Of a DNA stretch of 53,444 nucleotides, positions 3,591-53,444 are shown piece by piece. This stretch comes from a virus (taxonomy: Duplodnaviria > Caudoviricetes). Each line of letters opens with the position of its first letter. The stretch's first letter is position 1. Location of the stretch: positions 1 to 53,444 of IMG/VR virus record IMGVR_UViG_3300030329_003629; one strand, given 5' to 3'. A program made the position numbers and the translations under genes. Below the pieces are notes generated by a model that was not told where the DNA came from, searched no databases, and saw nothing but the letters and a program-made list of their open reading frames with translations.

Positions 3591-6500
3591 TTATTTAAAA
3601 ATTCTATTATCATTCTTCTTTCCTGTATCAAAAATTCTATTATCATCCTTCTTTCCTTTTGGGAAAATAGTGCTCTCATCTTTTTTACTATCTTTAAAAA
3701 TAGTGTTATCCTCTACTTCTTTTTTAACTTTCTTTTTAGTTTTTCTTTTTCTTTTATTATTCCTTTTTCTTTCTGCTTCACTTTGTATTTGATACTCACT
3801 GAAGTTAAATAAACGCATGATTATTTTTGCTGGATCCTCTCCGCCTTTTGCGAGTTTTTCTAAGTTCTCAAAGATCTTACTTATATTTCTAAGAGGCATT
3901 CCTGTAAATTGTCCTAATTCCATGAGTGCTTTAAAGCCAGCTTCTTCTTTTTTAGTAGGGTCTTTAGTGTTTAACCATTTATATAAATTTTTAAATACTT
4001 CTTCAAACTGCGTAACTACGGGTAGGTTTTTAAATCCTAAAAATGATAATGGTTTTCCTTGAAATATATGTGCTAAATTCACAGCAACCTCTCCTAAGAT
4101 TAATAACCCATTTACATTTCCTAAGATTGCTGCTCTTGCTAAATCGCTTTCATCTTCATCATCCCAATCCGCCAGTAATCCAGGGAACCCATTAGCTACA
4201 TACTGGAATAACATAGGCATTACTACATGATAAGTAAAAAAGGTTCTTGCGTTTTGCATCTTAGTTCCTTTCCCTTCCTTACCTCCGGACTTTAATAACT
4301 TATAGAAGTTTCTTATAGCGTATACTTCTTTTCTTAAATATTGTTTAGGTGTAGTTAAGAACATATTAATAGCTCTCATATAAGCATCTTGCGTTTGATA
4401 GTAATCTCTATCTTGCAAATCTGTAGACTGCTGAGTACGCTTAGTATCTCTCTCCCATTTTCTAATAGCTATATCTATAGCTTCCTTTTCTGTTTTACCT
4501 GCTTCTAATGCTTGATTTTTATAATAAACATAATTAGGAACTCCTCCTAAATAGATAGCTCCTCTATCCCCTAATCGCGTGGTATACATTAATGCATCTA
4601 CCAAACTCTCTCTTTGATCTACTCTTAATCCTGTAGCACTTCTAATCCAATCTTTATCACCTAATCTTTTATCCGTATACATCTCTAAGGCTTTAGTAAT
4701 ACTTCGCGCATCTCTATCCTGCATATATACTGAGTTCTCTGCTATCTCTTTCCATACTGCGCTAACCGATTGTCCTTTACCTAACCTACCTATTGCAGCA
4801 TTTTTAATCCAATTAGCAAACCCTATATCATTAGCATAAGTTATAAAAGAAGTTAACTGTTTTAAAGTTACTACAGGATTAATACCTAAACGAGAAGTTA
4901 TAAATAAATCCTGCATAATATTAACATAAGAATCAAACCTTACATTAGATTTAAACATTCCTTTATTAGCCAGCTTTTGAATTGCAGCTTCTATCATTTC
5001 ATTTACATTACCCCCATATAAGTTTTCAATCGTTTCTTTTATAATAGGATTAGTAAATAATTTATTAATATCATTTACCGGCCGTGCGTAAGCCGCAAAA
5101 TATTCCATATCACGCATGTAAGTAAACAAAGCATCTGTTCCGTCCATGGCTTTAATAGGCCGTTTATTATTCTCTCTCATCTTAGTGGAGTTAGCTGCCA
5201 CTACGTTATGATACTGCGTAGATCCGGATAATAAATCTACTCCTTCTGGCTCCACTCCATCTCTATAAACCATACCTGCATAGTTTACATTATAAGGCAT
5301 CTGCGTTCTATATATATCTTGATAAGCTTCATTATAATGATTATATAAACTTGGATATAAAACATCTACTTGCCAATCAGCAAACTCTTTTAATTCAGGA
5401 TAATTAGTTTCTAATTCCGTAGTTATATCCTTCATTATTCTTTGATAGTCTGGACCAAATTGAGCTTCAAACCCAGGATGATTTTGAGAGTCTTTATATT
5501 GGTTATATAAATAATACATTTGATTAGGAGACAAGCCAATTCCTTGCCTTAAAATTTCTTGCTCTAATTTTCTATTATTTTCCGCAGTTGGATTATCTTT
5601 ATAAGCCGCTTCTGCATCCTGTACTTTTTTAGCATCTCTAAATATTACATTAGGAACTTTATTAGTAAAAGATCCTACAATTTTTTTATACTTCTTACCA
5701 AATAATTCTTGATATTTAAAAATAATTAAAGCCTCATTCATTAGCATTCTTTCTTTAAATAAACGAGAAGCTCTATCTATTCTATCTGTAACTTCTTTTT
5801 GTGTTACCCCTTCAAATAAATCAGCAGGAAGTTTAGATATCTTATCCATGATTAGGAATAAATCAGAATGCTTATTCATAATATTTCCTAATGTACGAAA
5901 CACCCCATCAATTAATTTTCTTCCCCGACTTCTTATCGCATCTTTATTTTGTGCATACTGTCTGTCTTCGGGTAATTGTTCTTTTATATTTTCAATTATA
6001 TCGGTAATTTTATCTTGTATCTCCGCTTCAGTTGGCTTTTCTATTCCTGCTTCTTGCAATTCTTTCAAAGCTTGGTCTCTAAAACTTTCTCTTCGTCCAG
6101 TAATATCTTTATAAACCTCTTCAAACTGTCTTCTATATTCTAAATGAGCTTCTTGTAATTGATCTTTTAACATGGTTCTTCCTGTTAAAAACATTTGTTT
6201 TAACTCGGCCTCCACTCCTGCCAACACATTAACTTTTGTGAGATCATTATTACCCATTAAATTAGAGGCGCTTACCATATTCATGACAATTTGTAAATCA
6301 GCCATAGCCGTATAATCTCCTTCGAGTTTAACCGGTTTTTCATTAATCTCATTATATTCTTGTTGTAATTCTGCTATATATTTAAGAACTTCGTCTTCAG
6401 TTTTCTTAGCGCCTTTCTCAATTCTTCTTTTAATTGATGCTATTCTCTTTCTTGTGTCTTCATCTATCTTAACTCCTTTAAGAATATTGCTAATTTTCTT

Positions 6501-9500
6501 AACTGTTTTTTTAGGATCTAATAAAGCCTGGATTGAGGCTTCTAATCTTACATTATTTTTTTCTGCAGCAAACTCCATTACCTCATTCATTATTTCTTGA
6601 ATGTTATCATTATTGGCTTGCTCAATTTTTCGCATTAACTTAAGAGCTTCTTGCTTAGTATATATATCTTTAGGTAAAGTTTTACGCATAAAGTTTCTAA
6701 GCTCTCTTTGGACTTTCTTTAATTGTCTTTGTCCTTTAGTTTTAGCCTTTAATATTATACGCGCATTACGAATCGCTTCATTTAGATTAGTACTTTGTTT
6801 CCCTCCTAAAGCTCTGGCTATATCAATCATTAACAGAGATTGTTCGGTAGACATTCCTTTAACTCCGGGTTCTGCTACAGATTTATATCCTGCCTGTTCT
6901 CGTAAAAATTCCATCGTCTCATCCATCATCTCTTGCTCAGTAAGTTTTACTTTTGCTTTTGCATTCTTCGTTTGTAATTTATTATAGAAGTTAGATACTT
7001 TTTGAAATAATTTAACACCTGCTTTCATCCCTCCTTTTATATTTCCTAATGATGGTGGTATAACACTTAAAAGATCTGCGTTTATTTTCATTAACTCTCT
7101 TACCTCAGTCTTAGTAAACTTTCTCACTCTGGTAAGGTAATCTAAAATAGCAGCATCCGTAAAGTTTAAATCTCTGGCGGTAGTAATAATCTCTAAAGGT
7201 GTATCAAACTTGTTAAAAGTCTTTTGTGCTTTTTCATCTACATTTCTTTGTGCTTTTTCTCGCGGAGGTCTATATGTTTTTCCATCTTTCTTAAGTTTAT
7301 AAGAAGTGGTTTGCCCTCTATCTCCTCTGGTTCTTTCTACGGTAAACCCTAAAGCATTCGCCCACGCATTTAAAGCATTAGGATCAACTCCTTGAGGCCA
7401 TATAATACCATTAGATTTCATTTGATAAAAAGCAGCTAACTTTTCTACTGAAGCCTTCTGTGCTTTCTCTTGAGTTTTCTTTTTAGGTTTAGAGATCTTT
7501 TTAACACCTGTCCCGTAAGGAGCTACTACTTGAGCTTTAGCAGGTTTTCCTAATTCTTTTCCTTCGTATTTAGCCTTAAGGCTTTCAGGCATAATTTCAA
7601 AAGCATCTAACTTAATATCAGGAACGCCTACTACCTCTCCTAAAATATTAGTTTCATAAGTTGAGTGCTTTGACTTTCCACCTACTTCAGTTGGTTTTAA
7701 TACCAGCATTACATCGTTTTGCTCAAAGTTATTATCTCTATAAAATCCATCTCTTAATTCATCTAAGTTTATAAACCCATCTTTAGATTTAACAAGCTTA
7801 TGGAATTCAGTATTAGGAGTTTGCTCTTGTGCAACTATAGCTTTTAACAATCCTTTTCTTCCGTTACCATCTCTTCTGATAGAAGGCCAACTATCATGCT
7901 TTTCTAATATATCTCTTACTGCTTTTACCGGATTAGTAGCCAATGCTTCTTTTTTAAATACACCATAGTCTCCTAATTTATTTGCAAAAGCATCAAATAC
8001 TTTTTTGTTAAATAGTTTACTGGCTTGTGGGGACCCACTAATAATAAATATATAGTCTGCTTTTTCTACATTGTTAGCCATAGCTTTAGGTGTCATACCA
8101 CTTGCCCATATAATATTAGCAGCTAAATTTGTAGGATCTAATGCGTAGCTTGGACCTGCATCCATTTCAATACCATTAAATTCTCCTTTACCTAACTGAT
8201 CAGCTACCCAGAACCATACCTTCTGATCTTTGGCTACAATATCATCTATTAATTTTAATAAATCAATTTTGTTTTCAGGAGTAACTAAAGACATATCGTA
8301 ACTTTCTTTGAACTCAATTTGGTTTTTCTCTTTAGTTGAAGGTTCGTTAATAGTGGTTGGATCCCCAATAGGAGCTGTTCCATCCTCTATAACTTCTATA
8401 TCTCCTTCTGTAACTTCAGTTCCTTCTCTTACTTTTTTAGATACTGTATTGAAGAACTCAATCATATCAGCTTCTTCTTTAGTAAACTCTGTTATGTTAA
8501 CAGGTAAACCAACAGCCTTAGCTACTTTTTGTAACCATCTCTTTACTATATTTTTAGTAGGCCCATCTAACTGCGTATAGGCAGCTGAAAGATATCCAAA
8601 TAACTCAGCTACCTTTTCTTCATTTTGTTCTTCAACCGCATAATCTTTAGCAAAGCTTTCTATAACTTCCTTTAAGTTAGAGTCTTTTGGCAATCCTTTT
8701 ATTACCGACTGTAGCATTCTGCCCGTTACTGCGCTATATTTTTTAGAGTCTATACCTAACTTCTTTAATAGAACCGCATGCATAACTTCATGCCCTACTG
8801 TTCGCGTATTAGCTTTAGGTGCATTAATATGAATAGTATTAGTGTTAAGTGAGAAGCTTCCCTTCTTCCCTTTACTACCTTCGCTAACTGCTTGATTATA
8901 AGCATCTTCTGTAGCATGAACCACAATATTTAAATCAGGAATTAATTTAGCAATAGCCAGACCTGCATTCTTAGCTTGTCTTAATAAAGAAGGAATAATT
9001 CTTACTGCTTTAGGATCGCCTGCAGTTTCCGTTACCGTCACATTATCACTTACACTTACTCCTGGTAATGACACTGTTGTTCCATCACTTTTTGTTATAG
9101 TTACATTATCATTTTCATTATCTACAACTACAGCTTTCTCAGTGGTTTCTTGCTCTTGTTCTGTCTGCTCTTTTTTCCCTGACTTCTCATCAAAAATAGC
9201 AGTTAAATCTTCTACTTCCTTCTCCGTCTCTGTCCGAGAATCGGGGGTCTTTTTTTGCTTACTCGTTTTGGAAGGGGCCCTCTTGGTGTCTCCATCTCCC
9301 ACCTTTCGGCCATCTTCGGTTTGTACTTGTACATCCACGCTCTCTGGGCTTGACTCTTGAATGGCATCTTTTTTATTTTTTATTTGTTCAGGAGTTGGGT
9401 TCTCCACACCCTCCTCTTTTAATTCATTTATTGCTTGAGTAGTTAACTCAGCGTCAGCTTTATCTTTATCTATTTGAGCTTGACCTTCTCTTTGTATAAC

Positions 9501-12041
9501 CTCTACTTGATTCTCTAACTCAATTAACTCAGCTTGTTGTTTTTTAGTTAACTGTTTATTATACTGATTTATTTCATTATTAAGTTCTTGTTGTCTTAAT
9601 AAATTTCCTAACAACTTTTGTTTCTGCGAAGTAGGTAGATTGGCAGGAATTTGATTCATCACTCCTACCACCTGATCATAGTCGGCAATTATTTTTTTAC
9701 CCTCACTCTCTGTAATTTCATTATTTAAAATTCTTTGTTTGGTTTTTTCTATAAACGCCTCTCGTACTACAGGTTCATTATGCACCTCTTCAAACATCTC
9801 AAAAACACCAGGGTCTAATTGTGTAAAGTCTCCAGTAGATGCCGCAAAAGATATCGCGGGGATAGTTCCTATTACGAAACCTCCAACCATCTCTTGAGCT
9901 CCCGCTCTTATAACTTGCTTTACTCCATCGGTAAAACTCTCAGGAGTAGTAAACATATCTTTATCTTTTACCGCATTATATACTTCTTTAAAAGTTATGT
10001 CAGCTACTTCTTGAGCCAGCCCTGTTTCAAACTCCGCTAACCCTGCAGCCGTTACTATTAAAGTTCCTTGAGCAACCATATTATCCACTTCTTTCTTAAC
10101 TACCTGCCTAAAGTTTTTCCCGGTAATATTTTTGCCATGCTTATTCATGACTCTCATTAAAACTTTATTAGCCACCCCTTTTTGAGCTAAAGCATTTCTC
10201 AATCCCACATTTTCTAATACACCTACGACTATCCCTAAGGGGATAGTGAACACTGCTTTTTCCGCCTCACTAATATTAGCAAAATCAGGATCGTTCTGCA
10301 TTTCTTCATTTAAATGGTCTTCAACTTGCGATATCATGTTTACCACACGAATAGGTGTAGGCCCTAACATAGCAGGTACCGATTCCATTACTCCTATTAA
10401 AGCTCCTCCCCAAAAACCTTTTTTAGTTTCTGCGGTATACTCTCGCGTTACATCCTGGTATCCCACCACCTCTCTCAGTCCCTTTCGGGTGGCGTCTAAC
10501 ATACCCATCTTTCCATCATAATCTGGGTAATTAGCAAAAGCTGAAAACGGATTTGGGACTTGCTCTTCTCCTGCTTCTACATCATATTTTACCGCTTTAC
10601 GAGCTTCATCTCTAATTTCTTTTTCTATATCATCTAATAAAGAAGTGGTTACTGTTCGGGTAGTCTCCATGAATTCAAAATCTTCCTCCACTTCTGTTGA
10701 TGTACCAACTGTATCTTTAATTAATTGTTTTATTCTTTCAAATTCTTCAGGGTCCTTTATGATTTCTTCTATTCGTTCAGCTGTATACGTATCCCCTAAG
10801 GCTCCCGCTTCCTTAGCCTTCATTAATACTTTTCTTCTATAGGTTTGTGGAGATACCACAAAACCTTCTAAGGGTCCTACGTATGATATTAGATCTATCA
10901 TTCGATTTAACTTTTGAGTGCTAAAACGAGCAACACCGTCCATCCACGCATTCCATGCAGATCCCCAAATACCCCCTTGTTCTGCCCTCATATCATACCA
11001 TCCTCCTATTTGATAATCTAAATCTTTTCCTTTTCGCGCTAACCCCTGTTCCTCTTCACCCAGAAGAGCTGCAGCTTTTAAAATATTTTCTTTTAATTGC
11101 AAAGGAGTAGTAGACATCTGATTTCCATCAGGGCCTTCTACATAAATTACTTCATTAGGATCCCTCTCATCTAACTTGTTCTGATCATAAAAAGTTTTAG
11201 CCTGTAGATACTGAGCAAGATTATCTCTATATGTTTGAGTTTCTTCCTGAAACTCTTTAATAGAGTTCTCTACCGCTTTCTGTGTTTGAATTTTTTCTCT
11301 CTTTTGAAGATATCCTTCTTCAATACTTTGTAAAGCGGTACTTTCTTTTCTGTTTTCTTTTAAGAAGTTTATTAATTTTTCCGCTCCTTTACTTTCAAAT
11401 CCTAACAAGTTTCCAGTAGCTGGATCTAAATCAATAGTAATTTCTTCATCATTATAAGCCGTAACTTTCATAGCGTCCCGGACGCCGGTTGGCTCAAACT
11501 CAAAACCATAATCATTAAAATGATAATTCATTAACGGAACTACAGTGTGCTCTTCTTCATCAATAAGTTCTGCGTTAATTTGTTGTAGAGACTGTGTAAA
11601 AAAATCATCCCCTATATCATCACTGCTTTCAAATTGAGATGTAGGGTCGGAAGAAAAAGATTCAGGAACTTCAATCTCTGGTGTATCTATTTCTATTCCC
11701 GTTATACCAGTGTCAGTAACAGTAGGTTGTTCAACATCAAGACTTTCGGGTGGATCGGAAAAAACCGATGAGGGTGATTCTTCCTCTTGAATTTCGGTAT
11801 CGGATTCCATAACTTCCTCTTCCCCAGCGCCAGTCCCAACGGGCTTTTTTTTTTCATCAACACCCATTAAGATAGAAAAATCCTCAACAGTTCCGTTATA
11901 TCCTGTCCTTACAAAGTATTCAAAGGTAGCAGTAAGAGCCTCTTCATTACTCTTTACTAACTCTTCATAGTCTACAATGGTACCATTATATCCTGTCTTT
12001 ACAAAATAATCAAACCCGGCCTGGATAGCTTCTTCATTCAT
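3591..12041 (-). CDS. giant internal virion (ejection) / large polyvalent protein with a zincin-like HExxH domain
   Basis: 2816 aa, mostly helical; last of the large genes after the tail genes; TIHIN...TVGHEVMH...NEEKVAELF. Confidence 0.75.
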   Translation of the reverse strand: MNEEAIQAGFDYFVKTGYNGTIVDYEELVKSNEEALTATFEYFVRTGYNGTVEDFSILMGVDEKKKPVGTGAGEEEVMESDTEIQEEESPSSVFSDPPESLDVEQPTVTDTGITGIEIDTPEIEVPESFSSDPTSQFESSDDIGDDFFTQSLQQINAELIDEEEHTVVPLMNYHFNDYGFEFEPTGVRDAMKVTAYNDEEITIDLDPATGNLLGFESKGAEKLINFLKENRKESTALQSIEEGYLQKREKIQTQKAVENSIKEFQEETQTYRDNLAQYLQAKTFYDQNKLDERDPNEVIYVEGPDGNQMSTTPLQLKENILKAAALLGEEEQGLARKGKDLDYQIGGWYDMRAEQGGIWGSAWNAWMDGVARFSTQKLNRMIDLISYVGPLEGFVVSPQTYRRKVLMKAKEAGALGDTYTAERIEEIIKDPEEFERIKQLIKDTVGTSTEVEEDFEFMETTRTVTTSLLDDIEKEIRDEARKAVKYDVEAGEEQVPNPFSAFANYPDYDGKMGMLDATRKGLREVVGYQDVTREYTAETKKGFWGGALIGVMESVPAMLGPTPIRVVNMISQVEDHLNEEMQNDPDFANISEAEKAVFTIPLGIVVGVLENVGLRNALAQKGVANKVLMRVMNKHGKNITGKNFRQVVKKEVDNMVAQGTLIVTAAGLAEFETGLAQEVADITFKEVYNAVKDKDMFTTPESFTDGVKQVIRAGAQEMVGGFVIGTIPAISFAASTGDFTQLDPGVFEMFEEVHNEPVVREAFIEKTKQRILNNEITESEGKKIIADYDQVVGVMNQIPANLPTSQKQKLLGNLLRQQELNNEINQYNKQLTKKQQAELIELENQVEVIQREGQAQIDKDKADAELTTQAINELKEEGVENPTPEQIKNKKDAIQESSPESVDVQVQTEDGRKVGDGDTKRAPSKTSKQKKTPDSRTETEKEVEDLTAIFDEKSGKKEQTEQEQETTEKAVVVDNENDNVTITKSDGTTVSLPGVSVSDNVTVTETAGDPKAVRIIPSLLRQAKNAGLAIAKLIPDLNIVVHATEDAYNQAVSEGSKGKKGSFSLNTNTIHINAPKANTRTVGHEVMHAVLLKKLGIDSKKYSAVTGRMLQSVIKGLPKDSNLKEVIESFAKDYAVEEQNEEKVAELFGYLSAAYTQLDGPTKNIVKRWLQKVAKAVGLPVNITEFTKEEADMIEFFNTVSKKVREGTEVTEGDIEVIEDGTAPIGDPTTINEPSTKEKNQIEFKESYDMSLVTPENKIDLLKLIDDIVAKDQKVWFWVADQLGKGEFNGIEMDAGPSYALDPTNLAANIIWASGMTPKAMANNVEKADYIFIISGSPQASKLFNKKVFDAFANKLGDYGVFKKEALATNPVKAVRDILEKHDSWPSIRRDGNGRKGLLKAIVAQEQTPNTEFHKLVKSKDGFINLDELRDGFYRDNNFEQNDVMLVLKPTEVGGKSKHSTYETNILGEVVGVPDIKLDAFEIMPESLKAKYEGKELGKPAKAQVVAPYGTGVKKISKPKKKTQEKAQKASVEKLAAFYQMKSNGIIWPQGVDPNALNAWANALGFTVERTRGDRGQTTSYKLKKDGKTYRPPREKAQRNVDEKAQKTFNKFDTPLEIITTARDLNFTDAAILDYLTRVRKFTKTEVRELMKINADLLSVIPPSLGNIKGGMKAGVKLFQKVSNFYNKLQTKNAKAKVKLTEQEMMDETMEFLREQAGYKSVAEPGVKGMSTEQSLLMIDIARALGGKQSTNLNEAIRNARIILKAKTKGQRQLKKVQRELRNFMRKTLPKDIYTKQEALKLMRKIEQANNDNIQEIMNEVMEFAAEKNNVRLEASIQALLDPKKTVKKISNILKGVKIDEDTRKRIASIKRRIEKGAKKTEDEVLKYIAELQQEYNEINEKPVKLEGDYTAMADLQIVMNMVSASNLMGNNDLTKVNVLAGVEAELKQMFLTGRTMLKDQLQEAHLEYRRQFEEVYKDITGRRESFRDQALKELQEAGIEKPTEAEIQDKITDIIENIKEQLPEDRQYAQNKDAIRSRGRKLIDGVFRTLGNIMNKHSDLFLIMDKISKLPADLFEGVTQKEVTDRIDRASRLFKERMLMNEALIIFKYQELFGKKYKKIVGSFTNKVPNVIFRDAKKVQDAEAAYKDNPTAENNRKLEQEILRQGIGLSPNQMYYLYNQYKDSQNHPGFEAQFGPDYQRIMKDITTELETNYPELKEFADWQVDVLYPSLYNHYNEAYQDIYRTQMPYNVNYAGMVYRDGVEPEGVDLLSGSTQYHNVVAANSTKMRENNKRPIKAMDGTDALFTYMRDMEYFAAYARPVNDINKLFTNPIIKETIENLYGGNVNEMIEAAIQKLANKGMFKSNVRFDSYVNIMQDLFITSRLGINPVVTLKQLTSFITYANDIGFANWIKNAAIGRLGKGQSVSAVWKEIAENSVYMQDRDARSITKALEMYTDKRLGDKDWIRSATGLRVDQRESLVDALMYTTRLGDRGAIYLGGVPNYVYYKNQALEAGKTEKEAIDIAIRKWERDTKRTQQSTDLQDRDYYQTQDAYMRAINMFLTTPKQYLRKEVYAIRNFYKLLKSGGKEGKGTKMQNARTFFTYHVVMPMLFQYVANGFPGLLADWDDEDESDLARAAILGNVNGLLILGEVAVNLAHIFQGKPLSFLGFKNLPVVTQFEEVFKNLYKWLNTKDPTKKEEAGFKALMELGQFTGMPLRNISKIFENLEKLAKGGEDPAKIIMRLFNFSEYQIQSEAERKRNNKRKRKTKKKVKKEVEDNTIFKDSKKDESTIFPKGKKDDNRIFDTGKKNDNRIFK

Positions 12042-21861: not shown

Positions 21862-22782
21862 TTATTTTATCCATTTATCCTGGCCTCTTAAATTTTGTAA
21901 GAGTCTTCCTGGGTGTATGTTACTTAATCTTAATTTGGCGTTTCTAAGAAGAGAAGATTTGTCTTTTCTCGCTCTGTTCACCACATATTCTTGTACCCCG
22001 AATCTACCATTTAAAATAGAATATCTAATATATGCATAAATAAATTCTTCAAATAACTTATTAACACTAACTAAAGAGTCATCACCTTTTTCTAATCCAT
22101 CAGAAACATACTCTAATACTACCATTGTACCAGCCATTATAGACATAAAGTTGATTACTCCCTCTTTTTTATTTATACTAAAAGTAGGGTTTTGATTTGC
22201 GGTTTCTGTATTTAAACCAAAACGATCCCCAATTCTATAATCAAAATACCAATTTCCATCTATATTCCATCCCATTTGATTATTATAAGGACCTGTTCCT
22301 ATATACATATTCTTTTGAGTTCCTTCTAATCGTTGGATATCAAAATAAGAATCGGCAGGTTTTAATACATTTCCATCTATATCAAATAATATTTTACAAT
22401 CATTATCTTGTAAGTAAGCCCCACTCCAATTGGTTTGAATATTTTCTACCATAGGGTAAAGCATACCGTTTTTTTCTTGAGAAATTCGCACCCAATTTAC
22501 AAAGTCGGGAGGTAAGACAAATCGTAATTGATCACAAATTTGTAGTTCTAATATTTTTATTTCTTTCATCGCATCATAATTCAATTCTTGTATGCCACGT
22601 TTAGCATGGAACAATACTTGATAGCGATTAATATTATTAATAATCTCATGGTTTCCTTGATACATTAACATGAAATTATTTACTATATTTTCTAAAGAGA
22701 CATATTGATAGGACCCCCAATTTTTATCTTCAGGAACAATGTTTCCATTTTCGTAATATTGATAATCTGTAATATATGCCAT
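21862..22782 (-). CDS. tail ring/adaptor structural protein
   Basis: AKRGIQELNYD...LPPDFVNWVRI...LEYVSDG; synteny. Confidence 0.7.
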   Translation of the reverse strand: MAYITDYQYYENGNIVPEDKNWGSYQYVSLENIVNNFMLMYQGNHEIINNINRYQVLFHAKRGIQELNYDAMKEIKILELQICDQLRFVLPPDFVNWVRISQEKNGMLYPMVENIQTNWSGAYLQDNDCKILFDIDGNVLKPADSYFDIQRLEGTQKNMYIGTGPYNNQMGWNIDGNWYFDYRIGDRFGLNTETANQNPTFSINKKEGVINFMSIMAGTMVVLEYVSDGLEKGDDSLVSVNKLFEEFIYAYIRYSILNGRFGVQEYVVNRARKDKSSLLRNAKLRLSNIHPGRLLQNLRGQDKWIK

Positions 22783-25884: not shown

Positions 25885-27309
25885 TTATGCATCTTGGAAT
25901 AAGAAGAAGTTGTTTGCACCTAAAGTACAACAAGCTCTTTCACTCAAGAAGTTAACCTGCATTGCATCTAAAGAAGATGTTCTTGCTCCACCAGCAGAAC
26001 CAGTGATCCAAGTTTTGTAACGTCTGTCTTCAGTCTCTGACGCTCTGTATCGAACGTGTAAGAATGGACGCTTTGCGTTTTTACCTAAGATTTGGTCATA
26101 TACAGATGTAGATCCCGCTGGAACTAAAAGTCCATTGATAGCTCCACCTACTATATCACCTCTCATTGTAGCATCGTTAAGATATTTCCAATCAGACTTG
26201 TAGAAGTCATAACCTCTACGGAATCCTGTGAATCCTAAGTTAAGTGCCATTTCTTCATCATTATCAAATAAACCATATGATGTACCACCCGCTCCATAAG
26301 AGTTTTGAGCCGCTAACATATCGTCAATATCAAATGAGAATTGTCTGTTACAGAAAATAACATTTTCCTCAATAGCACCTTGCTTGTCTAATCTTTGAAT
26401 AACTGAATCGAAACCAGCAAGAGTAGTTGGGTTACCACCTCCCCATACATTTCCTCTTGTACTTACTACGTAGAATACACCATCAGATCCACCCTGGCCA
26501 TCTGTACCACCGGCATTTCCAAAGTGTATTGCAGCACCCGATGCGTTTCCAGCTGGAACAGCTTCGATCATTGCAGTTTCTAAATAGTCTTCAAAACGAA
26601 GTCTTGTTTCGTGCTCAGACTTTAAATACCATAAGTATCCTGAACCACCATTCTCCGTAGAGATTTCAACCCAACCAATTTGAGCCATATCAGAACCACT
26701 TACCTCGTAAGTATCCTTAATGATAATTGGTTTGTTGTCAAAGAATACGTCATCTGCTTCTAAAGACTCCTCCATTCCTGAAGTTCCTTTTTTGAATTCA
26801 GATCCGTAAATCATTACTGTACACGCTACACCAGCAGCTACTCCTTGACCAGCTGTTTCATAATACGCTACATCAAAAGTTCCTGCAGTATAATTAACAT
26901 CTGTTACAACTGCTTTGTTACTTAAGGTAGAAGCTACAGTATTGTCAGAAATAAAAACTGTCTGACCTTTTCTGATTGCTATCTGACCTGTACCTGGTAC
27001 TAAAGCATCATTTACTGTCCACGTTGCAACATTTTGTGCTGCTGCTGCTGCTGATGTACAGTCAATATACTTAGTGTGTAACCTTCCTTGTTCAGCCCAT
27101 TTTATCATGTCTGAATTCGAAGGCATTTCAGCACCTACCATTCTTAAGAATGATGCTACTGTTCTATTACCATATCTCTCAAATTCTTTCTCATATGTAT
27201 CAGGAAGATACTGATTTAAGAAATCGAAACTGGTAATGTAGTTTGAAGGAAGGGCTACTCGTTCCGCACTTGGCTGAAGATCCCATCCTGGACTTACATT
27301 TACTCCCAT
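25885..27309 (-). CDS. major capsid protein
   Basis: 474 aa; follows portal and scaffold; WAEQGRLH, ALNLGFTGFRRG, PFLHVRYR, FLSER; codon usage typical of high expression; strong terminator downstream. Confidence 0.85.
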   Translation of the reverse strand: MGVNVSPGWDLQPSAERVALPSNYITSFDFLNQYLPDTYEKEFERYGNRTVASFLRMVGAEMPSNSDMIKWAEQGRLHTKYIDCTSAAAAAQNVATWTVNDALVPGTGQIAIRKGQTVFISDNTVASTLSNKAVVTDVNYTAGTFDVAYYETAGQGVAAGVACTVMIYGSEFKKGTSGMEESLEADDVFFDNKPIIIKDTYEVSGSDMAQIGWVEISTENGGSGYLWYLKSEHETRLRFEDYLETAMIEAVPAGNASGAAIHFGNAGGTDGQGGSDGVFYVVSTRGNVWGGGNPTTLAGFDSVIQRLDKQGAIEENVIFCNRQFSFDIDDMLAAQNSYGAGGTSYGLFDNDEEMALNLGFTGFRRGYDFYKSDWKYLNDATMRGDIVGGAINGLLVPAGSTSVYDQILGKNAKRPFLHVRYRASETEDRRYKTWITGSAGGARTSSLDAMQVNFLSERACCTLGANNFFLFQDA

Positions 27310-48107: not shown

Positions 48108-49757
48108 CTAATCTCTTTTGTGAGTTACAATAGCATTAGTAGTAAGAATAGTCGTGGCTACACTAATAGCATTTAATAAAGCATTCTTTGTTACTTTCAC
48201 TGGATCTACAATTCCTAACTTAAACATATCTCCATACTCTCTATTAAAGACATCATATCCTTTATTATTAAAAGGAGGGTGAGGAGCATTCTCACTATCT
48301 CCCATCATTTCTTTGGTATATATTTTCCCCATAATTTCATCTGGGTCTAATCCAGCATTTTTTAATATCTGCTCTAAAGGAGCTCGTAAGGCTTCACGTA
48401 ATATCATCTCCGAAGCTTGATCTTCACCAATTATTTCATCAGTTGCATCTTCACAAGAACATCCAAAATGACGGTGGGTATCATATAAAAATAATCCTCC
48501 TCCTGCAATTATCCCTTCCTGCAGGGCGGAACGCACTGCACAGACCGAGTCATCGACTCGGTCAAATTTTTCTTTTTGCTCTATATCAGAATTAGCACCT
48601 ACATAGATACATGCAATCCCTCCAACTAAACTCGCTATTCTTTCGTTAATAAAGTCTTTCTCATGTTTAGCTGTTAACTGTTCTTGTTGTTCTCTAAGTT
48701 CCTCTACTCTTTTAGTAGTCTCTTTTGTTATCTCTCCATTTTTAATTAAGATAGTAGAATTTTTTCCTACAATAATTTTATCTGCATGACCTAAGTCTTG
48801 CATGTTTATAATAGATAAATCATCTCCTGTCTTTTCAGAAAAATATTTAGCTCCGGTTGCAAAAGCAATATCCTGCATAAGCTCATGTGTTTTATATCCA
48901 AATGATGGAGGAGCAATATTACATAGCTTTAAACCATTACGAGCCACATTCGCTGCTAATGTGTTTATAACATTTACCGAGCATTCTCCAATAATTAAAA
49001 GTTTTTCTCCTGAATTTATAATTGGTTTAAGAACATTCTCAATTTGAAGAATATTATTAATCTCAGTGTCACATATTAAAACTTTAACATTCTCTAATAT
49101 ACACTCGTCTTTTCTTTGATCATTCACAAACATAGGAGATGACCAACCTCTATCTATCTTTATTCCATTAGTTACATCACAATATGTTTTATCTGTCTGA
49201 GATCTTTCTACTGTTACAATCCCATCCTTTCCTACTTTCCTATATGCCTCAGCTACTATCTCACCAATCTCTTTCTCATTGTTAGCAGAAATAGAAGCAA
49301 TATCATCTAACATATCATCCGTTACCTGTACTGCATTTTTATTAAGGTTTTTTACAATCATCTCTACATCATACTTAACTCCCCAAATAACATCCCATAT
49401 ATTATGCTGAGGTTGAATCCATTTTATTCCTGCTTGAATTAATGCTTCTGTTAAAACAATAGCGGTTGTTGTACCATCGCCAGCGACATTCGCTGTTTTC
49501 TCCGAAGCTTGCTTTACCATTTTTACCGCGAGGTTCTCAACCGGATCCTCTAAATCGATAGACTTAGCTACGGTTACCCCGTCCTTAGTTACTGTTAATC
49601 CTTGCGTATGATTATTAGATTCAATAATTACTGTTTTACCGCTTGGACCTAATGTGCTTTTTACTGCTTGTGAAATTTTAGAGATTCCTGATATAAGTTT
49701 ATCTCTTCCCTCTTGATCAAAAGAGAGGTCTTTTGGAGTGTACCCTGGGTTCTGCAT
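48108..49757 (-). CDS. groEL: phage-encoded chaperonin GroEL
   Basis: VKSTLGPSG, TKDGVTVAK, AGDGTTTA, EGIIAGGG, GIVDPVKVT. Confidence 0.97.
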   Translation of the reverse strand: MQNPGYTPKDLSFDQEGRDKLISGISKISQAVKSTLGPSGKTVIIESNNHTQGLTVTKDGVTVAKSIDLEDPVENLAVKMVKQASEKTANVAGDGTTTAIVLTEALIQAGIKWIQPQHNIWDVIWGVKYDVEMIVKNLNKNAVQVTDDMLDDIASISANNEKEIGEIVAEAYRKVGKDGIVTVERSQTDKTYCDVTNGIKIDRGWSSPMFVNDQRKDECILENVKVLICDTEINNILQIENVLKPIINSGEKLLIIGECSVNVINTLAANVARNGLKLCNIAPPSFGYKTHELMQDIAFATGAKYFSEKTGDDLSIINMQDLGHADKIIVGKNSTILIKNGEITKETTKRVEELREQQEQLTAKHEKDFINERIASLVGGIACIYVGANSDIEQKEKFDRVDDSVCAVRSALQEGIIAGGGLFLYDTHRHFGCSCEDATDEIIGEDQASEMILREALRAPLEQILKNAGLDPDEIMGKIYTKEMMGDSENAPHPPFNNKGYDVFNREYGDMFKLGIVDPVKVTKNALLNAISVATTILTTNAIVTHKRD

Positions 49758-49788
49758 TGTAGTTTATTTTAGTTAATTTAATTTTATG

Positions 49789-49796
49789 CAAAGATA
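49789..49796 (-). promoter_or_regulatory. -7 promoter box TATCTTTG (groEL-groES)
   Basis: 31 nt upstream of the groEL ATG. Confidence 0.75.
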
Positions 49797-49816
49797 TAAA
49801 AATATATATATAATTT

Positions 49817-50007
49817 ATGTTAACATGTTAATCTTCTTTTTCTTTTTTATATATATATATTTCTTTCTTATATATATTATTTTTTATTTAAAAAAAAGGA
49901 CTTCAACTTAACATATTAACATATTTAAATATAAAGTATTAATAATCAATAAGTTATAAAATGTTGAGTTTAAAATAAGTCAACATAAATATGTTAAAGA
50001 TTAACAT
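49817..50007. repeat. AT-rich region with nine TYAACAT heptamers in both orientations
   Basis: Copies start at 49817, 49820, 49825, 49908, 49916, 49961, 49980, 49991 and 50001. Confidence 0.7.
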
Positions 50008-50014
50008 ATAAGAT

Positions 50015-50046
50015 AAAAAAAAGAGGCAAACCTAAGTTTAACCTCT
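50015..50046 (-). terminator. intrinsic terminator
   Basis: AGAGGTTAAAC-TTAG-GTTTGCCTCT (imperfect stem) followed by a U-tract, after ORF 50076-50288. Confidence 0.7.
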
Positions 50047-50075
50047 CTTCACACAACAGAACAAATGGGTTCTTT

Positions 50076-50288
50076 TTAGAACTCTAACTCTCTCCAGTTC
50101 TTTTTGTCTTCAGCTAATTCAATTCCCTCAGCTATCATATTTATTTTTCTATCGTTCTTAACCGCTCTTTTAATTCGAGCCGCTTGAGCAATACCTGTTT
50201 CTCCGTCAGGACGATCATTAATTAATCTTCCGTCTTTAACGTAAAGTCCATTTACGTAATCTGATGTTGTGCTTGTTTTCTTTGCCAT
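50076..50288 (-). CDS. hypothetical protein
   Basis: GLYVKDGRLINDRPDG; followed by a terminator. Confidence 0.7.
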   Translation of the reverse strand: MAKKTSTTSDYVNGLYVKDGRLINDRPDGETGIAQAARIKRAVKNDRKINMIAEGIELAEDKKNWRELEF

Positions 50289-50305
50289 TGTCTTTTATTT
50301 TTTAG

Positions 50306-50423
50306 TCATTTGTTTAAACGATTTAGAGATATCCTTTTTTATTTTATTGAACTCAGCTTGCGATATATTATCTCTCTTTTCCTTTTTTCTTTTATACTTT
50401 TTTCTGAGCCCTGATGTTTTCAT
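50306..50423 (-). CDS. short basic peptide (not in ORF track; end approximate)
   Basis: MKTSGLRKKYKRKRKRD... just downstream of the promoter box at 50438. Confidence 0.35.
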
Positions 50424-50437
50424 TGCTTTATTTTTTA

Positions 50438-50445
50438 CAAAGATA
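50438..50445 (-). promoter_or_regulatory. -7 promoter box TATCTTTG, first promoter of the minus-strand block
   Basis: TAnnTTTG match at the edge of the non-coding switch region. Confidence 0.7.
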
Positions 50446-50953
50446 TAAAATTTTTTTAGATGTCTGGGGGTTGAGGGTTATTATAGGATATACGAAGGCA
50501 CCTCGCCTTAGGAAATGAAAAAAAAATTGCACCCCCCCCTAACCGATTTGGAAATTTCCACCCGAACTTTTTGAGGTTTTTTTGGGGGACTACGTAACCC
50601 CACCTACCCACCTAACTATACTTGCTCTTAGTTGCTTGTTCGTTCTCCTTTGCTACTCTTAATGTCTACGAGTTAACGCATACCTTCCCTCATTTAGCAG
50701 AGGAAGAGAGAAGATACCTTCCCTTAATCACTTTGTTAAGACAAAGAGAGAGTAAGGTTAACCACCCCACCATCCCCAAAATACATAAACAAAACAACAA
50801 AATTATCAACACCTTAAACGATTGATAATCAATATACTTACAAGAGAGAATTATATGTGACAAGAAAATAATTGCAATTAACCATTGTCAATCCAAATTA
50901 AATCACGATATTTGCACTACAATTAAACAATTAGTAATCAAAAACACACAATT

Positions 50954-51172: not shown

Positions 51173-51239
51173 ACCACCGAATGGCTCGTACTGAATTAAG
51201 TACGGGCTTTTCGTGGTAGGGGACAATAGTGTTTCCTAC
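51173..51239 (+). ncRNA. intergenic structured RNA (long hairpin plus second hairpin), copy 1
   Basis: ACCACCGAATGGCTCGTACT-GAATTA-AGTACGGGCTTTTCGTGGT, then GTAGGGGACA-ATAG-TGTTTCCTAC. Confidence 0.7.
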
Positions 51240-51256
51240 AATTTAAACACACAATT

Positions 51257-51766
51257 ATGAACACACAAGAATTAACAATGAGATTAGATATGCTCATTCC
51301 AACGCAATGGTTATCTAACACTTTTACTGATGGATTATGGGATAGAGATGCTCACAAAGAGATACTATCAAAGGTAGTAGAATTGAATCCTAAATGGGTA
51401 GAGCGAGTAGTGAATTCAACAACAGGATTACATACTGATGGAGAGTTAAAGTTATCTGATGTACTACATGACTTTAAAGGTATCTACTCTGAAGATGAGC
51501 ATTTCCTACCGAGAATATCTACTGAAGTTACTGATGATGAGGTGTATGGATACACTAACATACAAACCTACCGATTATGTTTAGTATTAGACAATGAGCC
51601 GACTGAATGCTCTTATAATCCTTTAGAGAGATTCTTTGAGTTAGTATCTGATGAAGAATTTGAGATTACTGATATTAATCTTATCAATTGGAATGAGGTA
51701 ATTGAGAGATACTCGGAGAGATTAGTAGAGGGATATGAGTATAAACACCAAGTACAATTAGTATAA
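51257..51766 (+). CDS. early acidic hypothetical protein
   Basis: 169 aa; same leader motif. Confidence 0.75.
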   Translation: MNTQELTMRLDMLIPTQWLSNTFTDGLWDRDAHKEILSKVVELNPKWVERVVNSTTGLHTDGELKLSDVLHDFKGIYSEDEHFLPRISTEVTDDEVYGYTNIQTYRLCLVLDNEPTECSYNPLERFFELVSDEEFEITDINLINWNEVIERYSERLVEGYEYKHQVQLV

Positions 51767-51767
51767 A

Positions 51768-51825
51768 AATACTCTGATGAGTCTGCTGAAATGCAACGAA
51801 ACACCTCGCAAGAGGTGTCAGTATT
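51768..51825 (+). ncRNA. type I hammerhead ribozyme 1 (cleavage after C51819)
   Basis: Stem I AATACT/AGTATT; core CTGATGA; stem II GT(C)TGC-TGAAAT-GCAAC; GAAA; stem III CACCTC-GCAA-GAGGTG; GTC cleavage triplet. Confidence 0.93.
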
Positions 51826-51844
51826 AATTAAAAAACACACACAA

Positions 51845-52270
51845 ATGGGATACAATACCGATTGGAATGGAGGACTAACACTTAGTAGAGAGTTGACTCC
51901 AAAAGAGCAAAAAGAATGGAATGCTATTATAGAAAATAGACATGATAGTGAGTATTTTGAGGGAGATGAACGTAGAGAGTTTCCGAGTATATGGTGCGAC
52001 TTTGAGATTGATGGTAAAGAGTTTAGATGGAATGGTAATGAGAAGACTTATGAGGGCATCGGCTGGATTAAATTCTTCCTGAATAAGCTAAAAGAATGGA
52101 ATAAGACAGAAAAAATCTATGCAGAGGGAGAATTAGAATGGCGAGGAGATGATGGAGATGAAGATATGGGAAGAGTAGTAGTAATAGGAATGGAAGTAGG
52201 AGGAAAACACACCATCCACATTGATAATGTAGTATTTGACTACGAAAGAGATAAAACATACTACATATAG
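51845..52270 (+). CDS. conserved early phage protein of unknown function (141 aa), flanked by ribozymes
   Basis: Probable start MGYNTDW after AAAAACACACACAA; PSIWCDF...WNGNEKTY...W...GELEWRG. Confidence 0.8.
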   Translation: MGYNTDWNGGLTLSRELTPKEQKEWNAIIENRHDSEYFEGDERREFPSIWCDFEIDGKEFRWNGNEKTYEGIGWIKFFLNKLKEWNKTEKIYAEGELEWRGDDGDEDMGRVVVIGMEVGGKHTIHIDNVVFDYERDKTYYI

Positions 52271-52321
52271 ATACTCTGATGAGGACTCAATGTCCGAAAC
52301 TACCGAAAGGTAGTCAGTATC
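52270..52321 (+). ncRNA. type I hammerhead ribozyme 2 (cleavage after C52315)
   Basis: Stem I GATACT/AGTATC; core CTGATGA; stem II GGAC-TCAAT-GTCC; GAAA; stem III CTACC-GAAA-GGTAG; GTC cleavage triplet. Confidence 0.96.
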
Positions 52322-52348
52322 ATAAGATACCAATTAAAAACACACACA

Positions 52349-52573
52349 ATGTATAAAACAATGGTTAAAGAAGCCCAAGAATTTTGGGGACAAGTAGCAT
52401 CCGAAAATGGATGGAGTATGAATGGTAGAGGATGTACAATATGGATAAACAAAGACAATGAAGTATTAGATAGTATCTACAATAAAGAAGATAATAAAGA
52501 ATCTTATATCGTAGAAGTAGAGATAGATAATGATGGATACTATGAGAATGAGATATTAATTAAAACAATATAG
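52349..52573 (+). CDS. early hypothetical protein
   Basis: Preceded by AAAAACACACA-ATG. Confidence 0.7.
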   Translation: MYKTMVKEAQEFWGQVASENGWSMNGRGCTIWINKDNEVLDSIYNKEDNKESYIVEVEIDNDGYYENEILIKTI

Positions 52574-52575
52574 AT

Positions 52576-52947
52576 ATGAAAAACAAATATGCACGAAAAT
52601 GTGATTACACAGGTAAAGGAATGAATACAGGATATGTATTTATTGATGACTCCTGTATGATAGATGATAGAGAATTATTTATCAAAGAATTAAGAAAAGA
52701 TAGAGAGGGTATTATTAACTTGATACCAAAAGATATCAAAGATATTCATGGCTTTGATAATTCTTGTTATCTAACTGAAAAAGAGATAGAGGAGTTGTCA
52801 AATAAAGTAGCAAATGCACTTAATAATAATGAAACTGATGAAGAGTTATGCGATATAGCATATGCAGTAGATTATTATTATTGGACACAATGGGAAGATG
52901 AATATGAGTATGAGGAAATTAATGGAGTATTAACTGAAATAGAATAG
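52576..52947 (+). CDS. early hypothetical protein
   Basis: ARKCDYTGKGMNTGY...YYWTQWE. Confidence 0.75.
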   Translation: MKNKYARKCDYTGKGMNTGYVFIDDSCMIDDRELFIKELRKDREGIINLIPKDIKDIHGFDNSCYLTEKEIEELSNKVANALNNNETDEELCDIAYAVDYYYWTQWEDEYEYEEINGVLTEIE

Positions 52948-52949
52948 AT

Positions 52950-53150
52950 ATGAAAATAAGAGATTATATAGCAGAGTTAATTATGATAACGTTATTCGCA
53001 ATTGTTATGTCCTCTTGCGGAATAACAAACAAATTAACTGATGAACAACTACACCACCGATCCCGAATTGAGTATGAAATGAATAAATTATGGAACGAAT
53101 ACCAAATAAAGAACGACTCTTTACTAATGGAATATTATAAAATTAAATAG
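52950..53150 (+). CDS. putative lipoprotein
   Basis: Basic N-terminus, hydrophobic core and lipobox-like MSS|C. Confidence 0.65.
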   Translation: MKIRDYIAELIMITLFAIVMSSCGITNKLTDEQLHHRSRIEYEMNKLWNEYQIKNDSLLMEYYKIK

Positions 53151-53187
53151 ATAAAGAAATTATTAATCAATTAAAAAACATATAGAT

Positions 53188-53388
53188 ATGATAGATTTAA
53201 AAAAAGAGCAATGTTATAATTGTGATGAGATGTATGAATGGAAAGAAGTACCAAGTGGATGGGATGAGGAGTATTGTACTGAATGTAATGAAAGATTAAA
53301 CCCATACTTATGTAATAACTGCAATGAAGAGGTAGATGAGCCGGATACCTTTTGTAGTAAATGGTGCAGTCAAGAGTATTGGTTATGA
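53188..53388 (+). CDS. small Zn-finger protein
   Basis: CYNC, CTEC, CNNC and CSKWC motifs. Confidence 0.7.
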   Translation: MIDLKKEQCYNCDEMYEWKEVPSGWDEEYCTECNERLNPYLCNNCNEEVDEPDTFCSKWCSQEYWL

Positions 53389-53408
53389 TTTAATTGTGTG
53401 TGTAGGAC

Positions 53409-53444
53409 ACGATTGGCTCACTATGAAAATAGTGGGCTTTTCGT
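53409..53444 (+). ncRNA. intergenic structured RNA hairpin, copy 2 (truncated by window end)
   Basis: ACGATTGGCTCACTAT-GAAA-ATAGTGGGCTTTTCGT. Confidence 0.7.

Follow-up and report, generated by a model that had tools for sequence, protein, structure and literature searches.

A 58-base sequence on the plus strand of a phage genome (positions 51768-51825) is probably a functional, self-cleaving type I hammerhead ribozyme (HH1), judging from its sequence, its relatives and its placement. It appears to act as punctuation between two cistrons of a plus-strand accessory operon. The window, by which we mean the whole stretch of DNA analysed (53,444 nucleotides), is a virus record of IMG/VR, and CheckV puts its completeness at 88%. 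A search with its capsid protein gave matches in 85 phage records (68 from Flavobacterium, 15 from Cellulophaga, 1 from Maribacter and 1 uncultured at 66.5% identity), which points to a marine Flavobacteriaceae-type podophage.

Anatomy of the ribozyme

HH1 has the type I topology, in which stem I is open and stems II and III are capped. Stem I consists of six base pairs between 51768-51773 and 51820-51825 and leads into the core strand CUGAUGA (C3-A9; 51774-51780). Stem II (51781-51797) is followed by the core GAA (G12-A14; 51798-51800) and stem III (51801-51818). Stem II has five base pairs and a 6-nt loop, UGAAAU (51787-51792); both core-proximal pairs are intact and are followed by the bulged C51783, two pairs from the core, and then by three further pairs. 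The closing pairs of all three stems are present (G51781-C51797, A51801-U51818, U51773-A51820). The core reads C3 U4 G5 A6 N7 G8 A9 and G12 A13 A14, with a non-G at position 17, and hammerhead numbering places the predicted cleavage site at 51819/51820, after C17 (C51819) and before A51820. An initial annotation of this DNA had described an intact core and a stem II with a bulged C and a UGAAAU loop, both of which agree with our reading. It had also proposed a stem III of 6 bp with a GCAA tetraloop; the tetraloop is found at 51808-51811, whereas the helix has 7 bp once the A15.1-U16.1 pair is counted.

By every defining feature of its sequence (core, three helices and C17), HH1 is a type I hammerhead. 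The class assignment is made because these features can be read directly and are joined by comparative evidence, and not on the strength of a database match. By eye, we found neither a conserved pseudoknot between loop II and the stem I flanks of HH1 nor a conserved extension or bulge of its stem I. Since no tertiary contact between stem I and loop II is seen in this way, HH1 may not cleave fast at the Mg2+ concentrations of the cell.

A second hammerhead, HH2, had been named in the initial annotation and is present on the same strand at 52270-52321. It is also of type I, with a predicted cut after C52315. The pattern CTGATGA-N6-34-CGAAA occurs twice in the window against 0.23 expected occurrences. 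We also used a full three-helix descriptor, which requires the core, at least 2 bp in stem II and at least 4 bp in each of stems I and III, with stem III ending in U and any base but G at position 17. This descriptor gives two matches in the window, both on the plus strand, compared with a mean of 0.005 per dinucleotide-shuffled window; only one of 200 shuffles contained any match. HH1 has a folding z-score of -3.2 (ViennaRNA), and its hammerhead fold sits 2.7 kcal/mol above the nearest-neighbour minimum free energy structure. For HH2, the hammerhead fold is the minimum free energy structure itself (-16.3 kcal/mol).

The curated Rfam models share the core with HH1 and respond to it weakly. At gathering thresholds there were no matches in the whole window, and at E ≤ 1 the only one was a sub-threshold type III alignment of HH1, with none for HH2. 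Under relaxed thresholds in a 401-nt region, HH1 aligns end to end with RF03152 (RAGATH-1-hammerhead) at 28.4 bits (gathering threshold 56.3) and partially with RF00008 (Hammerhead_3) at 24.1 bits (gathering threshold 48.5), about half of the gathering value in either case. RF00163 (Hammerhead_1), which has the same core, gave no match in the record at E ≤ 10. The RF03152 alignment takes the type I topology with stems II and III capped. This model includes an extra 5' hairpin, which is weakly matched by 4 bp at about 51752-51764, inside the upstream coding sequence. By eye, no hairpin of that kind is evident upstream of the orthologous copies in two related phages (loci L001 and L006, see below).

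A family of hammerheads with an invariant core

Relatives were collected from IMG/VR as six loci found by a search with gene A, the gene downstream of HH1 (L001-L006), and 27 stretches matched by a pattern whose stem I was set to the common sequence. The window and these loci (L001-L033) contain 49 descriptor matches, 14 of which are duplicates from overlapping loci of the same contigs. The remaining 35 are distinct, and 33 of them are copies beyond the pair in the window.

In an alignment of the 35 copies (A1), every core column except N7 is invariant. Pairing is kept in 97.0% of the cells, and 12 of the 15 counted pairs change on both sides, so that all three stems covary. The covariation score of 0.648 exceeds the value after shuffling (0.127; none of 500 shuffles reached the observed score) and that with slid pairing partners (at most 0.101), although both the stem-requiring descriptor and the choice of 27 loci through a fixed stem I inflate these figures. 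Copies detected outside this selection therefore carry more weight. The initial annotation had inferred selection for activity from the different helices around an identical core in HH1 and HH2; this inference holds up, since the same contrast of changing helices and constant core extends over the whole set of copies.

A model built from alignment A1 (R1) detects a held-out copy in L005 (2158-2212; 54.9 bits) that the descriptor had overlooked. HH1, itself a training member, scores 57.8 bits, and HH2 scores 67 bits. With filters off, R1 finds no third hammerhead in the window, the next best score being 14 bits. Copies are found in four of eight cultured or complete relatives, namely Cellulophaga phage phi18:3 (at about 21904-21958; 44.4 bits), Flavobacterium phage elemoA_7-9A (43 bits), and elemoF and elemoD (30.7 bits each); the other four, MW202828, Panino, phi38:1 and Calle_1, gave none with R1. 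The elemoA copy (NC_055852.1 17290-17347, minus strand; our locus L045) is intact. Those of elemoF (MT497071.1 16045-16102, minus strand; L037 1501-1558) and elemoD (MT497091.1 14140-14197; L046) read CUGACGA and contain two mispairs in stem II. These Flavobacterium phages, which belong to one genus, differ at the ribozyme, intact in elemoA and mispaired in elemoF and elemoD.

The helices recur as modules. The bulged stem II of HH1 is found as an identical module in L023, combined with a different stem III. In L001 and L031 the bulge is a U, and a G-C pair of stem II is swapped to C-G. A two-base bulge marks another stem II module, which three distinct copies share (L006, L007 and L033).

Placement between stop and start codons

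HH1 occupies a 78-nt space between two small genes. The upstream gene (51257-51766, plus strand) encodes a protein of 169 residues without an assigned family and ends with the TAA at 51764-51766. A single spacer base, 51767, separates this stop codon from HH1, as the initial annotation had stated. The orthologue of the upstream gene (cluster G) likewise precedes a hammerhead in L006. On the other side, the predicted 3' cleavage product starts with an A/C-rich leader (51820-51844, plus strand) that is predicted to be unstructured and whose length of 25 nt, ahead of the ATG at 51845, is the one proposed earlier. Gene A (51845-52270, plus strand) encodes 141 residues (phrog_38666), and the last base of its TAG stop codon is the first base of HH2. 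The next gene (52349-52573, plus strand; 74 residues) begins 33 nt past the HH2 cut.

This arrangement is shared by most of the family. The stop of an upstream ORF has an offset of -8 to +9 nt from the first base of stem I in 34 of the 35 copies, and in 28 of them it directly adjoins or overlaps this stem (offsets -1 to +2). An ORF of at least 40 codons opens with an ATG 21-33 nt past the cut in 31 copies. The leaders are rich in A and C and are predicted to lack structure. The four exceptions comprise one false early ATG, one start at 92 nt and two copies without a qualifying ORF; the latter are in L023, where only 40 nt of sequence follow the ribozyme, and the third copy of L001, which is followed by a shorter ORF. 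All ten hammerheads in L001-L006 lie on the gene strand. Gene A is bracketed by same-strand hammerheads in the window, L001 and L006. In the other four of the seven phages that have gene A (L002-L005), no hammerhead lies directly upstream of it, which indicates that the module is optional at this junction.

Four genes of the operon have nearly the same A/C-rich sequence, of the type AAACACACAA, as a leader immediately ahead of the ATG (50935-50953, 51238-51256, 51826-51844 and 52331-52348). Leaders of this type have no purine run resembling a Shine-Dalgarno sequence, which we take to fit Bacteroidota-style initiation.

Six small proteins encoded around HH1 have no Pfam family, except for a double zinc ribbon in the product of 53188-53388, and when the DNA of 51200-53444 was compared with 50,697 phage records, no match was found. 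The sequence itself is reproduced in an independent assembly (X2), which carries 51240-52680 without a single difference; the 22 runs listed for the stretch include none of RNA that contains it.

Elsewhere in the window, no tRNA or tmRNA genes were found. The minus strand encodes a giant protein of 2816 residues (3591-12041), a Cpn60/GroEL-family chaperonin (48108-49757; Pfam 4.7e-63) and the capsid protein (25885-27309), which shows weak similarity, below the Pfam cut-off, to the Crassvirus major capsid family. The minus- and plus-strand gene blocks diverge from a region of about 1.2 kb (49760-50950) without a convincing long ORF, which includes very AT-rich repeats and C- and G-runs (50520-50610). 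This may be a regulatory or origin region.

Gene A starts downstream of the ribozyme

The ORF call of the window extends gene A upstream to an ATG at 51791-51793 and so reaches into HH1, where this ATG spans part of the stem II loop and of the 3' strand of that stem. The initial annotation had called it a wrong start and preferred 51845, and comparison with the orthologues upholds both statements. In six of six gene A orthologues the protein begins with MGYNTDWNG at the ATG equivalent to 51845. In four of them (L003, L004, L005 and L006) an in-frame stop codon lies 15-69 nt upstream of this ATG with no start codon in between, leaving no possible upstream start. The PHROG profile match to gene A also begins at residue 1. 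As judged from these sequences, the start at 51791 is an artefact of the longest-ORF rule.

The hammerheads of cultured phages are masked in a similar manner. In elemoA (NC_055852.1 17275-17382, KNV10_gp68) and elemoF (MT497071.1 16030-16137, phanotate40), a 35-residue "hypothetical protein" is annotated over the hammerhead on the opposite strand. The operons are otherwise one-stranded around this coding sequence, which is very likely a spurious gene call. In phi18:3 the ribozyme lies in an unannotated 90-nt gap.

The gene A protein had no match in the 50,697 phage records, and its AlphaFold model (mean pLDDT 67) shows an alpha/beta fold with no PDB match at E ≤ 0.001. All of its BFVD matches are to viral proteins that are themselves uncharacterised, one of them from a crAss-like phage (E = 8e-4), with weak rows named YubB ferredoxin-like domain.

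A proposed model for cleavage between cistrons

In the reading that we favour, the RNA would fold into a three-helix junction as the operon is transcribed and would cut itself after C51819. The upstream message would then end about 50 nt past its stop codon, closed by a pair of stable hairpins and carrying a 2',3'-cyclic phosphate, and the downstream one would begin with a 5'-OH and the unstructured leader in front of the start at 51845. HH1 and HH2 together would release a 496-nt single-gene mRNA for gene A (51820-52315). A module of stop codon, ribozyme, leader and start codon could in this way uncouple the stability and the translation of neighbouring cistrons. By analogy with proposals for other phage hammerheads, the polycistronic mRNA is most likely cut co-transcriptionally into single-gene messages with short unstructured leaders. 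The integrity of the motif, its covariation, the strict placement and the true start codon can be seen in the sequences; that the RNA is cut in vivo, and that this affects message stability and translation, is inferred.

Not all products of the family would have the same 5' end. After cleavage of HH2, folding predicts a 5-bp hairpin (52317-52330, plus strand) at the new 5' end that re-uses the 3' strand of stem I. HH2 belongs to a variant whose stem I is closed by a G-C pair. In all seven distinct copies of this variant, the 5' strand of stem I is repeated downstream, and the new 5' end can fold with this repeat into such a hairpin. The leaders are correspondingly 32-33 nt long.

A second structured element in intergenic positions

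A separate element with two hairpins (51175-51239, plus strand; folding z-score -6.26) lies in the same operon as HH1. It consists of a covarying 9-bp hairpin, an invariant run UUU(C/G)GU(A/G)GUAG and a short second hairpin. Another copy in the window, at about 53400-53444, is cut by the window end, and further copies occur in ten loci (L001, L002, L006, L008, with two, L017, L020 and L030-L033). Among 12 copies from the window and the ten loci, 7 of the 13 predicted pairs show compensatory changes. The element occupies a slot like that of the hammerheads, past a stop codon and about 20-30 nt before an ATG, and in L002 it takes the place that HH1 has in the window, immediately ahead of gene A. 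It matched no Rfam family at E ≤ 10, and neither the hairpin at 51175-51215 nor that at 53400-53444 was called as a terminator in a consensus scan. Possible roles of the element are those of a terminator, of a processing site or of an undescribed ribozyme.

Alternative readings of the ribozyme modules

The modules of ribozyme and leader might persist mainly as junctions for the recombination of gene cassettes, with RNA cleavage being secondary or incidental. The gene order around gene A varies between the phages, and identical stem II and stem III modules are re-assorted between copies, with a 6-cycle in the module graph. DNA contigs from other marine metagenomes align with the window across the ribozyme islands alone, and their sequences depart from it to either side. 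One of them (X3) has loose ends at 51762/51827 and 52265/52351, another (X4) joins a different stem II module to stem III of HH1 at 51797, and a third (X8) has a joint from 52335 to 51832. However, joints between contigs at 80% likeness can stem from unrelated repeats and are weak evidence. Recombination sites would also need neither a catalytic core nor compensatory changes, yet both have been kept. Recombination as the main role is unlikely in our view; it would add to a cleavage function and does not exclude it. Our data suggest that the modules of ribozyme and leader also mark junctions of cassette exchange. A broader idea, which we consider speculative and rather unlikely, is that the near-universal stem I sequence provides standardised connectors, by which a bracketed gene would become a circular mRNA and accessory cassettes would be swapped among marine Flavobacteriaceae phages.

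In another reading, the excised RNA would be circularised. The 5' end left by HH1 could anneal to the 5' strand of stem I in HH2 and so re-form a hammerhead across the ends of the 496-nt RNA, which the ribozyme or a host RtcB-type ligase could then close into an exonuclease-resistant circular mRNA for gene A. This would require compatible stems, and stem I has the same 5-nt core in 29 of the 35 distinct copies, a count that includes loci from the 27 selected for this sequence. In the set selected by protein (window and L001-L006), which holds 12 hammerheads, the common stem I is found in 10 of 11 when the L005 copy is left out; the sole differing stem I among those 11 is that of L006 2012, and all three copies in L001 are identical in this stem. 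The bracketing of gene A by two same-strand hammerheads in three phages would also suit excision, and tandem hammerheads of retrozymes yield circular RNAs according to the available parts of two reports (PMC4918200, PMC7229834). On the other hand, spliced or circular products were considered for prophage hammerheads and were not detected, as far as the available part of that study describes them (PMC3088659). The conserved 5' hairpin of the HH2 product would in addition sequester the 3' strand of stem I and oppose re-pairing and ligation. We therefore regard circularisation of the gene A message as improbable.

Cleavage may instead be regulated, such that a ribosome terminating 1 nt upstream, or the alternative hairpin at 51760-51773, a competitor for the 5' strand of stem I, unfolds or delays HH1 and the cut reports on upstream translation. 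The tight position of stop codons at offsets -1 to +2 from stem I would allow such a coupling, and the Rfam type III model aligned the hairpin at 51760-51773 as a closed stem I. By eye, this hairpin has no counterpart in the positional orthologue (L001 724-783), and no ligand-binding or switch domain is present. We give this idea a slim chance. It is highly improbable that HH1 is an inactive relic or a chance look-alike in which the sequence encodes the N-terminal 18 residues of a 159-residue protein starting at 51791: the longest-ORF rule, the unreached Rfam thresholds and the degenerate copies in elemoF and elemoD are compatible with this view, but the chance expectation of 0.005 per window, the covarying stems, the six orthologues that start at the equivalent of 51845, four of them with no room to extend, and the PHROG alignment from residue 1 all oppose it.

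Relation to known hammerhead systems

Hammerheads that flank phage genes are already in print (Perreault 2011, PMC3088659), and the HH1/HH2 pair is a further example. The available part of that paper describes prophage hammerheads that flank single genes, reports in vitro cleavage of three tandem arrangements and proposes that long transcripts are cut into gene-length mRNAs. A 2019 review (PMC6765202), in the part available, treats the processing of polycistronic transcripts by phage hammerheads as suggested and unproven. As in the prophages, several same-strand copies lie on either side of single genes or of small groups of genes whose function is unknown or accessory, here gene A between HH1 and HH2, and likewise in L001 and L006. 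The accessible text of Perreault 2011 stresses type II as the common bacterial form, whereas the family of HH1 is of type I with a short open stem I of 5-6 bp. The phages also differ from those described there, being marine Flavobacteriaceae podophages, and the placement is unusually strict, with the stop codon abutting stem I and the ATG 21-33 nt past the cut. In the open-access literature, we found no paper that mentions hammerheads in Cellulophaga or Flavobacterium phages.

Type I hammerheads in the 5' UTRs of RNA mycoviruses are needed for translation initiation, according to the part of the report available (PMC13725137). Like HH1, they lie shortly upstream of an ORF, and self-cleavage makes the 5' end that is translated. 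They belong to eukaryotic, cap-independent RNA viruses, in contrast to HH1, which sits between cistrons of a bacterial DNA phage. Retrozymes and viroid-like circular RNAs, as presented in the available parts of two reports (PMC4918200, PMC7229834), resemble the HH1/HH2 pair in that a few hundred nucleotides lie between two hammerheads that share a strand and have a compatible stem I. The bracketed RNA is here an ordinary protein-coding gene of a dsDNA phage genome.

The organization of HH2 has a further parallel in an engineered device, which is discussed here as a structural analogy. Synthetic insulators of the RiboJ type consist of a self-cleaving ribozyme followed by a hairpin. The HH2 subtype has the same order of hammerhead, immediate 5'-end hairpin and translation start, which would give a defined, context-free 5' UTR. 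In contrast to the synthetic insulators, HH2 is natural and phage-encoded and its hairpin re-uses a strand of stem I, while HH1 has no such hairpin.

Implications for phage gene expression

All of these copies are overlooked at the curated Rfam thresholds, and gene callers mask HH1 in the window and the copies of elemoA and elemoF. The purpose of many hammerheads in phage DNA is still called unresolved in the available part of the 2019 review (PMC6765202), and the HH1 family provides a rule-like case, in which a stop codon is followed by a ribozyme, a leader of 21-33 nt and a start codon. The intact copy of elemoA and the mispaired copies of elemoF and elemoD form a natural test pair for ribozyme function. 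Intact copies are also at hand in cultured phage-host pairs, phi18:3 with C. baltica and elemoA with Flavobacterium strain BAL314, and these pairs would allow direct tests of whether such ribozymes process phage mRNA, set 5'-end-dependent translation or give rise to circular RNA.
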